Shown piece after piece: positions 3,001 to 6,000 of a stretch of DNA of 8,302 bases (position 1 is its first letter; every line of letters starts with the position of its first letter). Made by a program: the position numbers. This stretch comes from a virus (taxonomy: Duplodnaviria > Heunggongvirae > Uroviricota > Caudoviricetes), in the IMG/VR virus record IMGVR_UViG_2671180755_000009. The stretch is one strand, 5' to 3'.

Positions 3001-6000
3001 GATATCGGATCTTTGCCATAACCTGTTACGGGAGGCGCACGCCTCCCGTCCTCCTTATCAGACTCAGCCGCCGGACGCACTGCCGTAGTTCACTCCGGTG
3101 ATCACCGCCACCGCCGCAGTACGGCGACGACGCCAGTTGATCCAGCGCTCCGCACGGATGGCCACGCTGCCTGTCTGGAACATGGAAACCAGCTCCACCG
3201 GGGACGGCGTGGTACTGTCGCCGCCCGGCTCAGACTGCATTTCCAGTGATGCCTCGCGGGACATATCCACTGCCACGCCGCCGTCATCCGCCAGATAAAT
3301 ATCCGGGGCATTCACCAGCACCAGCTGGTCACCCACGTACTGGGAGACAATCACCGGCAGCCCCTGGAAGGAGCCACCCAGCAGGGTCATGTCCGGGTAT
3401 TCCTTCTGACCCAGCGCATTTTTACGCATGGACAGTGCCAGGGCATTGGTGCTGGACATCAGCCAGACCGCACCGGTGGGCTGCAGGTTTGCTGCCACAA
3501 ACTGTCCAAACGCAGCCTCGGCATCCGCATCCGGGTTACCGGTTGATGCCGTGCCCTTCACATCATGGGTGATGGACGCCGGGGAGACATCTGCCACTGC
3601 GGCTTTTTTCGGGTCCACAAAGTCTGTATCCAGACGCGCCACCACCGCTTCCGCCAGCGCATTACGGACCAGTGCATCAGCAGCCGGACTGGAAAAACGG
3701 ATCAATTCTTCCGTCAGTACCGCAATGGCCGACACCTTCGCATGACTGAAGGTGATGGATTCAAAATCAAACTTCGTCAGGGGTTTTGCCTTACCCTCAC
3801 CCACCCAGCCGGCAGCACCGCCGGACACCTGGGCGTGCACACGGATATTGAATGGCACCTGACGAAGTGCAGGGATCCCGCCCTGACCAAATCGCCCGAT
3901 AATGGTCTGCGGACGCAGGTAATCAATAAAGTCCTGTGCGTATTCCTGATATTCAGACAGGCTGCCTGCCCACTGCGGATCCGTGGTGGTCCCCGCGCCC
4001 ACTGCCGATTTCAGGACATGATGCAGACGACTGTCATCCGGATACTGACGACGGGCCACTTCCAGGGCTTCAGATCGGACGCCTTTAGCCGCAGCCAGCG
4101 ATTTGGCAAAGCGGGCGAAGCCAATCCCCTTATCCAGTTTCTGCTCCACACGGATCACCGGCGCAGAAGCCACCGCGGCCACATTCCCGTTACCGGCCTG
4201 TTTCACCGGCTGCGCCGTGGCGGCCTTACCGGCTTCCAGTTCACGCAGGCGCTTCAGGTGCGCATCCACCTGACGGATTTCCGCTGCGGTGTTGTCGTAA
4301 TGCTCTTCCTCCTCCACATCCAGCGTGCGCCCTTCCTCTGCGGCTTTGGTCATGACCTCCTCAAGGGAGGCTGCCAGCGCTGCACGCTTGTTTTCAAAAC
4401 TTTTAATCTGTTCGCCAATATTCATTATGGTCTTTTCCTTATGAAAAACGGTTGTTGACTGTGCCGCAGCGCCGGCAGAAGATGCGATTTTCACCACCGG
4501 TTTCCGGTTGCCGGACGCGGCAGAAAACGGGCGGTCGTAAGATTTAATGGTCCGGATGGTGCATTCCGCATTCGCGGGCACGGTGACGGCAGACACCTCC
4601 ATCAGTTCCCAGCGCAGAAAATGCAGTCCGCCTCCGTCCAGAAAGGTGTATTCATGGGGACGGAAGCCCACGGACAGCCCCCTGACCAGCCCGGTCTTAA
4701 TGGCCGCCCAGACCTCATCCAGCCGGGCAGCCAGTTGCGACGGCATATCCGGTACGGGCTTCACCAGTGTTGCCGTGATTTCCAGCCCTTCGCTGACCCG
4801 GCGCACCGTACACTGCCCCACCGGGCGGGAATGGTCATGCTGCCAGAGAAACGGGATCGCACTGCCAAACTCCGCGCCCTCCGGCTCCAGGATGTCACCA
4901 TCCCGATCCGGAGAAGGCGTTGACGCAATCCCGGTGATCACCCGTTCATCCTCACTGAAGGATTTCACCGTCAGCAGGGAACAGGCCCGTTTAAGAGTCA
5001 CATCAGCCTCCTGAAAATAAAAAAACCGCCGCAGCGGTTCATGATGGTTACAGTGTGAACAGGGTTATATGAAAAAAACCGCATATTCTTTCTTTTTCGG
5101 TTCCGGGTTAAGGGACATCAGGGAGACCGCATTGAACAGCGCCATCAGCGGGTCAATTTTTCCCCGTCCACTGGCCTGTTTGGTGATAAGAATGGCGTTA
5201 CCTTTAGGCTCCACCCGGGCATTGCCGACACACCAGGCCATCAGGGGCTGGTCACCATGCACCAGCACCCCTTCAGCCAGTTTGCGCTCGGTGGTTTTAA
5301 TGGCCCCGCCCAGTTTCCAGCCCTGGCTTATCCCCACCACAATTCCGTCGGGGATCCCGGCTTCCGCCAGTGAATCCAGAATCTGCCCCACCCCTGACGG
5401 GTCAATACCGATATGGTCCAGTAACTCAGCCTCATGAATGCGACGCACATATTCCGCCACTTCCGCCGTGTCATCCCCGACACGCCGGACAATGGTCATA
5501 TCTCCACAGGCAACAAGATCCTGAAACCGGGACGCCTCGCTCTTCCGTCGGACCACCGCGGTTTCATGCGCCCAGGCATGGCCCCAGCCCAGCCATTCGC
5601 GGGTTTCCCTGTCACGGCCAATCACGTACATTCCCAGCAGATCATCCAGGCCCCCGCCGTCAATCCCCACCGTCACCACATCAGCGCGCTGCAGGATATC
5701 GTCCAGGCTGACGCGCCTGCCCTGCTGCTCCCAGAAATCCGCACCCGCCCAGCGGTCAGAACGCAGGGCAAGACCAATTTCCACATTGGCATGTTTTGAC
5801 ATGAAGCCACGAAATGCTTCCTCACCAGCCTCCCGGGCTTTACGGTACTCCCGGTACAGAAAAGCCTCATCCACCGAATAACCGAGATTCGGGTTAACCA
5901 TGGCGAGGTTTTCCATCAGCAGGTGAGCCCCGCTTTCCACCATTTCAGGAGGATGCTCAAAAATCACCGGCAGAAAGTGCGGATCATGAATTTTGCCGTC

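Follow-up and report, generated by a model that had tools for sequence, protein, structure and literature searches.

The stretch of viral DNA analysed here (8,302 nucleotides; IMG/VR record IMGVR_UViG_2671180755_000009, Caudoviricetes; the window in what follows) carries a phage head-packaging gene block on its minus strand. In this block a single open reading frame (ORF) of 645 codons joins a prohead protease to an HK97-family capsid protein, which raises the question of whether such a gene makes one product or two. A first-pass annotation of the sequence had proposed an internal in-frame start that gives a second product. Our comparisons of sequences support this idea, because a start codon, a Shine-Dalgarno (SD) sequence and an unfolded RNA context are deeply conserved at the boundary between the two parts, and relatives with separate genes start their capsid gene at the same codon. 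We consider it likely that two proteins with a common C-terminus are made from this gene, one of 69.0 kDa in which protease and capsid protein are fused and one of 48.2 kDa that is a capsid precursor. The fusion is described and annotated in earlier work; its nested expression would be the new part. The coordinates of all features are collected in Table 1.

We confirmed that no stop codon lies between the protease and capsid domains, as the first-pass annotation had stated, since the Pfam matches to the two domains lie in one frame. The DNA of the ORF matches EP2851_53 of the Shiga toxin (Stx) phage 2851 (Stx2c) at 100% identity; this gene is annotated as "major head protein Gp17 / phage head maturation protease". 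Phage phi330 carries it with 100% identity too, and BP-4795, YYZ-2008 and numerous Stx1a/2a/2c phages have it at 98-99.9% identity. We assign the window gene to head assembly in a Pankowvirus-type (phage 2851-like) Stx/lambdoid prophage. The phrog_617 profile covers the ORF from end to end (residues 1-639 against profile positions 7-626 of 626, E=3e-261), and the phrog_10 profile, 'major head protein', also matches it. By its sequence the gene is a member of the protease-capsid fusion family typified by Pseudomonas phage PAJU2 (phrog_617). It was found in 1254 of 5426 complete Escherichia coli genomes (~23%), with up to 7 copies per genome, and the architecture of ~645 amino acids (aa) occurs in 93 phage records.

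An ORF of this kind could also be an artefact or a pseudogene, in which an error or decay had removed a stop or shifted the frame between two genes. The prophage region does hold runs of masked bases (N), O157 strains carry many defective prophages, and the homologous genes of HK97 are separate (gp4 ends at 4025 and gp5 starts at 4028). However, phages 2851, phi330 and YYZ-2008 carry an identical ORF without interruption, as do 1251 E. coli genomes at a coverage of at least 80%. Fusions of ~645 aa are also found in Salmonella, Enterobacter, Klebsiella, Serratia, Pantoea, Kosakonia and other enterobacterial genera, and homologues of 38-78% identity across Proteobacteria keep this length and architecture; there the family forms more than 100 clusters at 50% identity. 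An exhaustive search gave a similar picture, with 145 fused forms among the best 150 representatives of 50%-identity clusters (38-54% identity). Because the same architecture recurs in phages, in E. coli, in other genera and among the cluster representatives, the fusion ORF is not a sequencing artefact, and we regard the chance that it arose by error or decay as negligible.

The protease part of the ORF matches Peptidase_S78 (PF04586) at residues 48-152, with 34.7 bits against a cutoff of 21, and hhalign matched the family alignment to HK97 gp4 with a probability of 97% (E=7.6e-11). His55 and Ser110 align with the catalytic His and Ser of HK97 gp4. Both are invariant in an alignment of 18 enterobacterial homologues (alignment A1; 73-98% identity), and the equivalent residues are invariant in alignment A2. 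At the other end of the ORF, Phage_capsid (PF05065) matches residues 386-635 with 52.7 bits against a cutoff of 24.2 (E=5e-14). A sequence search of the PDB gave one weak match, to the major capsid protein 9d9w (E=0.0019).

The two domains are joined by a linker that has indels and little conservation in alignment A1, with a column entropy of 3-3.7 bits. The AlphaFold model looks disordered across residues ~139-193, with a predicted local distance difference test score (pLDDT) of 23-27 in the linker. The input to AlphaFold2 was alignment A1, which is too shallow, and the model is poor overall, with a mean pLDDT of 38.8, and of no use for the capsid core. Its sole confident part consists of two long helices at residues 195-222 and 229-262 (pLDDT 74-78), which begin directly after Met193. 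The first-pass annotation had described a coiled-coil delta/scaffold segment that begins at the internal ATG; the two predicted helices hint at such a segment.

The proposed internal start is Met193, the M of ...HKEKTIMNIGEQIK.... The ATG and the AAGGA that had been reported about 10 nt upstream of it are both present, separated by a spacer of 10 nt, and the predicted product has a computed length of 453 aa in place of the earlier estimate of about 452. On the window sequence alone, this combination of ATG and AAGGA is not beyond chance. The internal SD has a duplex energy of -6.2 kcal/mol, which is equalled or beaten by several other in-frame start codons of the ORF, and because these score as well, the evidence from a single sequence is insufficient. 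What is unusual at this site is the combination of ATG, SD and unfolded context. The ATG lies in an A-rich stretch that is the least structured window of the ORF, with a minimum free energy (MFE) of -5.8 compared with -15 to -26 at most other in-frame start-codon contexts. We also considered M217 (ATG 4353) as an internal start and rejected it. A GAGGAGG precedes it closely, leaving too short a spacer, and the RNA around it is folded (MFE -19.3). The SD of M217 arises from E-E-V codons that are unconserved in the relatives of alignment A1.

For a comparative test we used DNA from 28 genomic loci and 80 viral-contig loci with protein identities of 32-100%, which gave 100 fused loci and 75 distinct contexts, and we also aligned 145 fused representatives of 50%-identity clusters. 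A start codon is present at the homologous site in all 100 fused loci; counted by distinct context, there are 72 ATG and 3 GTG codons. This codon sits 4-7 codons ahead of a conserved EQI motif, or 1 codon ahead in one locus. Among the cluster representatives, 131 of 145 have M at the site and the remaining 14 have V or L. Met193 is likewise invariant across the 18 enterobacterial homologues, where it directly follows the indel-rich linker. The column entropy is 0.49 bits at the start site, whereas the flanking linker has 3-3.7 bits and the columns just downstream have 2.7-3.5 bits. Anchoring the site on a Met within 9 residues is partly circular, but by chance only ~19% of such windows would hold a Met.

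The SD is conserved along with the start codon. A duplex energy of -5 kcal/mol or lower with the 3' end of 16S rRNA was found at 96% of the internal sites, compared with 14% of all in-frame positions and 15% of the other in-frame start codons (Mann-Whitney p=4e-38). Enterics have AAAGGA or AAGGAA as the motif, and lineages rich in GC have AAGGAGG, GAGGAGG or CAGGAG. Because the motif differs between lineages, what is conserved is SD function and not one sequence. As a comparison, the mean SD energy is -7.2 kcal/mol at the internal sites and -7.75 at the genuine 5' sites, and the internal SD is the stronger of the two in 30 of 73 loci.

Conservation of this kind could also be a feature of the protein, for example with the Met as a required N-terminal residue of the delta helix or with the purine-rich codons ahead of it as a protease site in the linker, rather than a set of translation signals. 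The residues that follow the Met (N/K-I/T-x-E-Q-I) are indeed conserved as protein. The SD also leaves a trace at the protein level (K-G, K-E or K/Q/E-E-G just ahead of the Met), and this enrichment in K, E and G could in principle be a cleavage motif. However, the site tolerates only M, V and L, and the V is encoded by GTG, itself a start codon, in 3 of the 3 cases with DNA. The upstream signal is also stronger in the nucleotides than the peptide predicts. Under synonymous resampling of the same peptides the SD energy is -5.4 compared with the observed -7.2 (p=7e-14), and the rare Gly codon GGA makes up 58% of the Gly codons at the internal SD but 8.5% across the ORF. The homologous position is the true N-terminus in split relatives, and the dip in GC content and structure of the RNA is without a protein-level explanation. 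We regard an origin of the signal in the protein as very improbable.

This dip is seen in a window of +/-30 nt at the site, where the GC fraction is 0.42 compared with 0.58 for the ORF and the MFE is -6.9 compared with -16.5. In the fused loci the internal site is usually both the least GC-rich and the least folded 60-nt window of the ORF. The site has also persisted in a degraded copy. The homologue in an Arsenophonus endosymbiont (L019, 1501-3428) is broken by several stops and frameshifts, from which we conclude that it belongs to a decaying prophage, yet AAAAAGGAAA plus ATG is kept at the boundary. In a distant fusion, ORF18 of Lactococcus phage Nocturne116 (L114, 7804-9354), an SD-like AAAGGA and an in-frame ATG (Met145) lie at the domain boundary, with zero predicted structure in the window around Met145. 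From this case, the nested-start signature may be general to protease-capsid fusions.

Relatives with separate protease and capsid genes were found in Acidovorax, Snodgrassella, Burkholderia phage vB_FUBS1, Stenotrophomonas phage SOVA965 and Moraxella phage Mcat6. Their capsid genes all begin precisely at the codon homologous to Met193, preceded by an SD of the same kind, and the capsid N-termini include MTIAEKIK..., MKTYAEQI... and VNLQEQIK.... Similarly, stand-alone capsid proteins among the cluster representatives align starting from residues 193-196 of the window protein. At one locus (L030) a stop codon lies directly ahead of the ATG. A neighbour-joining tree built on the capsid part places its 10 split forms at scattered points among the 231 fused forms, and parsimony gives 9 changes with a fused root, which indicates that the fused state is long-lived. 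For repeated changes from fused to split by a stop or frameshift to be viable, the internal start would already have to work in the fused form.

These data bear on another explanation, that there is a single polyprotein only. All subunits would then be made as the 69-kDa fusion, which would cleave itself and give protease and capsid protein at 1:1, and the internal ATG and SD would be a relic or would be kept by frequent switching between fused and split states. Database annotations all show a single coding sequence (CDS), and fused and split states do interconvert, as the 9 inferred changes show. By contrast, a relic would be expected to erode as fast as the linker around it, which cannot be aligned between lineages, whereas here all 100 loci keep the start codon and 96% keep the SD, with differing motifs and biased synonymous codons. 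The GC content still dips at the internal site and its RNA is unfolded, as at an active initiation region, and many lineages have a full GGAGG as internal SD, which surpasses the 5' SD in strength. The sampled enterobacterial genera are all fused down to ~52-57% identity (the Arsenophonus copy being a pseudogene), with linkers that have diverged beyond alignment, yet the site is retained. Because the fused state has been long-lived while the linkers diverged this far, a functionless relic would not survive. The change from fused to split by a stop codon, as at locus L030, would also be lethal without a working internal start. We think it unlikely that a single polyprotein accounts for the data, and we favour the reading with two co-terminal products.

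Several points nevertheless weigh against two products. The only reading that we found published for this family, for PAJU2 ORF003, is that of an autocatalytically cleaved 'capsid polyprotein', with a second start unmentioned; this cleavage is itself a proposal (PMC8306868). The SD in the E. coli lineage is modest (AAGGA, -6.2 kcal/mol) compared with the stronger 5' site (AGGAGG, -10.3 kcal/mol), so that in this lineage a strong SD with GTG is set beside a weaker SD with ATG in open RNA. We judge the 10-nt spacer somewhat long for efficient initiation, and the internal site could be blocked by ribosomes that elongate from the start further upstream. The compared sequences are related, so the statistics given above overstate their independence, and the sample was drawn with full-length queries, which favours fused forms. 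In addition, the structural model of the fusion protein is poor, and hhalign of the capsid part against HK97 gp5 gave no significant similarity (probability 0.7%).

In the mechanism that we infer, initiation at GTG 5001 with its SD AGGAGG would give the 69.0-kDa fusion of an HK97-type serine protease, a flexible linker, a delta domain and the capsid protein. Initiation at ATG 4425, with the SD AAGGA in an A-rich unfolded stretch, would give the 48.2-kDa precursor of delta domain and capsid protein, equivalent to HK97 gp5. Both products would co-assemble in the procapsid through their identical capsid and delta parts, and a minority of fusion subunits would bring the protease into the shell by covalent tethering. 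The C-terminal tail of free HK97 gp4 serves in capsid targeting. Tethering would replace this tail, and the fusion has its variable linker at that position. The protease would then cut off itself, the linker and the delta domains to leave a mature capsid protein of ~33 kDa. One guess, modelled on K103|S104 of HK97, places the delta cleavage site at K331|S332; this is speculation because the alignment to HK97 gp5 is not significant. The relative strength of the two initiation sites would set the number of proteases per capsid. By a rough calculation, a T=7 shell made entirely of the fusion would have to hold ~415 x 32 kDa inside, ~2x the internal load of HK97 Prohead I. Because of this load a mixed population is plausible, though unproven.

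The closest known systems are those of PAJU2 and the Stx phages. PAJU2 ORF003, annotated as 'prohead protease fused capsid protein', has 48% identity to the window gene at 100% coverage (tblastn), and its boundary carries CAGGAGG and an ATG, like the SD and ATG of the window gene. The genes of the Stx phages 2851, BP-4795 and YYZ-2008, annotated as 'major head protein/prohead protease', are 98-100% identical to it. The neighbourhood is alike in all of these, with the large terminase (TerL), the fusion, one or two small ORFs and the portal. There is no structural difference between this group and the window gene; the records read one cleaved product, whereas the present evidence points to a second, internal product.

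HK97 gp4 and the window protease belong to one family and have their catalytic motifs at the same positions. HK97 gp5 and the window capsid protein belong to the same Pfam capsid family, with a helical N-terminal domain ahead of the core that in the window protein is predicted. In both, the protease part directly precedes the capsid part; in HK97 the two are separate genes, the first with its own stop, whereas in the window they are fused. HK97 gp4 has 225 aa and aligns to residue 165, with ~60 residues beyond; the window protein has instead a variable linker that is joined covalently to the capsid protein. The portal gene is upstream in HK97 and downstream in the window.

Nested protease/scaffold pairs are known from other viruses, and Mu I/Z is one of them. 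Lambda C/Nu3 and UL26/UL26.5 of HSV-1 (herpes simplex virus 1) are nested in-frame protease/scaffold genes, and in the archaeal virus HFTV1 the nesting of gp17/gp17.5 has been shown by ribosome profiling (bioRxiv 10.64898/2026.09.13.751334). Like the window ORF, these have an N-terminal protease, a C-terminal assembly domain and an internal in-frame start. In lambda, HSV-1 and HFTV1 the internal start, with its own SD, gives a more abundant co-terminal product, and the protease reaches the procapsid through the shared C-terminal part. However, what is nested in them is a free scaffolding protein, with a separate gene for the capsid protein, whereas the predicted nested product of the window is the capsid protein with a delta scaffold. 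The comparison with lambda C/Nu3 made in the first-pass annotation is thus apt for the nested in-frame start but not for a free scaffold. Because the nested ORF (4425..3064) contains the whole capsid protein, we describe the window ORF as a variant of the C/Nu3 arrangement and not as a strict member of it. The lambda C protease is not known to be an S78 enzyme.

Fusions of protease, scaffold and capsid protein in a single gene have also been described in small actinobacteriophages and in Rhodobacter RcC phages (PMC7302621; bioRxiv 10.1101/2021.08.04.455094). The actinophage fusions, which hold the three functions in one ORF, include those of Microbacterium clusters EE and EL, Arthrobacter AN/AX/FE, Gordonia CW/DM and Rhodococcus RRH1. 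ORF18 of Nocturne116 has the same three functions (PMC8306868). All of these are distant in sequence from the window gene or unrelated to it, and we found no mention of an internal start in the papers cited here for them. A CBASS preprint deals with a different protease-scaffold protein and has no bearing on the case. Outside two key HK97 papers and the original PAJU2 paper, the literature yielded neither an experiment testing a nested capsid start nor a statement of one. The present case combines a known kind of fusion with a known kind of nesting, and the capsid protein itself would be what the nested gene encodes.

Table 1. Positions of the fusion gene, its parts and the neighbouring genes in the window.
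Feature	Position	Strand	Details
HNH endonuclease gene (PF01844)	7749-7384	minus	upstream of small terminase
Small terminase	7094-6531	minus	
Large terminase (TerL)	6534-5065	minus	broken by 16-N masked run
SD of the GTG start, AGGAGG	5007..5012	minus	5-nt spacer; duplex energy -10.3 kcal/mol
Protease-linker-delta-capsid fusion ORF	3064..5001	minus	645 codons; GTG start 5001-4999; TGA stop 3066-3064; 69.0 kDa
HK97 gp4-like S78 prohead serine protease domain	4522..5001	minus	residues ~1-160
Catalytic His55	4837-4839	minus	LWQH(55)D, aligned with ffnHk of HK97 gp4
Catalytic Ser110	4672-4674	minus	GLS(110)VGF, aligned with GmSvGF of HK97 gp4 (G-x-S-x-GF motif)
Hypervariable linker, predicted disordered	4426..4521	minus	residues ~161-192; 3' end holds the putative internal ribosome-binding site
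Internal SD, AAGGA	4436..4440	minus	codons K-E; 10-nt spacer before ATG
Internal in-frame ATG (Met193), proposed start of nested capsid-precursor gene	4423..4425	minus	codon 193
Proposed nested ORF, delta-like domain and capsid protein	3064..4425	minus	453 aa; 48.2 kDa; C-terminus common with full product
Delta/scaffold-like N-terminal region of capsid precursor	4009..4425	minus	residues 193 to ~331; end point a guess
HK97-family capsid core	3097..3846	minus	Pfam Phage_capsid, residues 386-635
73-codon ORF	3019-2798	minus	
Portal gene	from 2852	minus	broken by 88-N run
gp6-like head-tail connector	651-325	minus	

The head gene order of the window (325-7749) is unusual, with small terminase, large terminase, protease-capsid fusion, small ORF(s), portal and connector, and with the portal downstream of the capsid gene, opposite to HK97. 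The order of large terminase, protease/capsid, small ORF(s) and portal is common to PAJU2, Burkholderia phage vB_FUBS1 and phage 2851. In Moraxella phage Mcat6 the part with capsid, small ORF and portal is alike, and the upstream gene is annotated only as hypothetical. The pairing of HNH and terminase genes is typical of HK97-like cos phages. Masked N runs at 1141-1228 (88 bases) and 6430-6445 (16 bases) lie in the portal and large-terminase ORFs, which they interrupt and throw out of frame. Phage 2851, which has an identical capsid gene, has a portal CDS of 859 aa and a large terminase of 553 aa; by this comparison, the window appears short of ~380 nt from the 3' part of the portal gene. The C-terminal extension of the portal is long (~654-1400, minus strand), with EAVSxxPxPxDGRD...DPDVL on both sides of the N run, which suggests that the portal tail holds a tandem repeat.

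Two hairpins flank the fusion ORF. At 5040-5013 (minus strand), between the stop of the large terminase and the SD of the fusion ORF, a terminator-like hairpin (GAACCGC-TGCG-GCGGTT) is followed by a T run, and a T run just ahead of the 5' SD is also present in many relatives. This hairpin could serve for partial termination, for processing or for RNA stability. The second, at 3028-3049 (minus strand), is a 9-bp GC-rich hairpin (ACGGGAGGC-GUGC-GCCUCCCGU) without a T run, which lies 15 nt past the capsid stop and just ahead of the ATG of the next small ORF; its fold energy is unexceptional compared with shuffled sequences (z=-0.9). The 73-codon ORF (2798-3019) directly follows the capsid gene, is without a Pfam match and overlaps the start of the portal by 55 nt. 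Distant relatives have small ORFs with a similar N-terminal pattern (...K/TxxLxYxG...GDxF/V...) at this position.

For this large family of tailed-phage head genes, we think it reasonably likely that the capsid protein is expressed from an inner gene that annotations lack, that the long form is a maturation protease which delivers itself by its covalent tether and that the ratio of the two sites sets its copy number per capsid. The same nested logic may hold for the independently evolved fusions of phages of Gram-positive bacteria and of actinobacteria. For specialists this would be a logical extension and not a surprise, yet it would be widespread and absent from annotations, would concern Stx phages and could be tested easily. 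The system is tractable, because the phages grow in E. coli and there is one ATG with one SD to mutate. If this reading is true, thousands of genes annotated as "major capsid protein" or "prohead protease" encode two products, which bears on the annotation and expression of such capsids, including their use as nanocontainers and studies of Stx phage particles. It would explain how fusion phages build capsids without one protease per subunit, with the protease targeted by co-polymerisation and no docking tail. The dosage by nested genes known from lambda, herpesviruses and an archaeal virus would then gain a third configuration, in which the capsid gene is nested in the protease gene.

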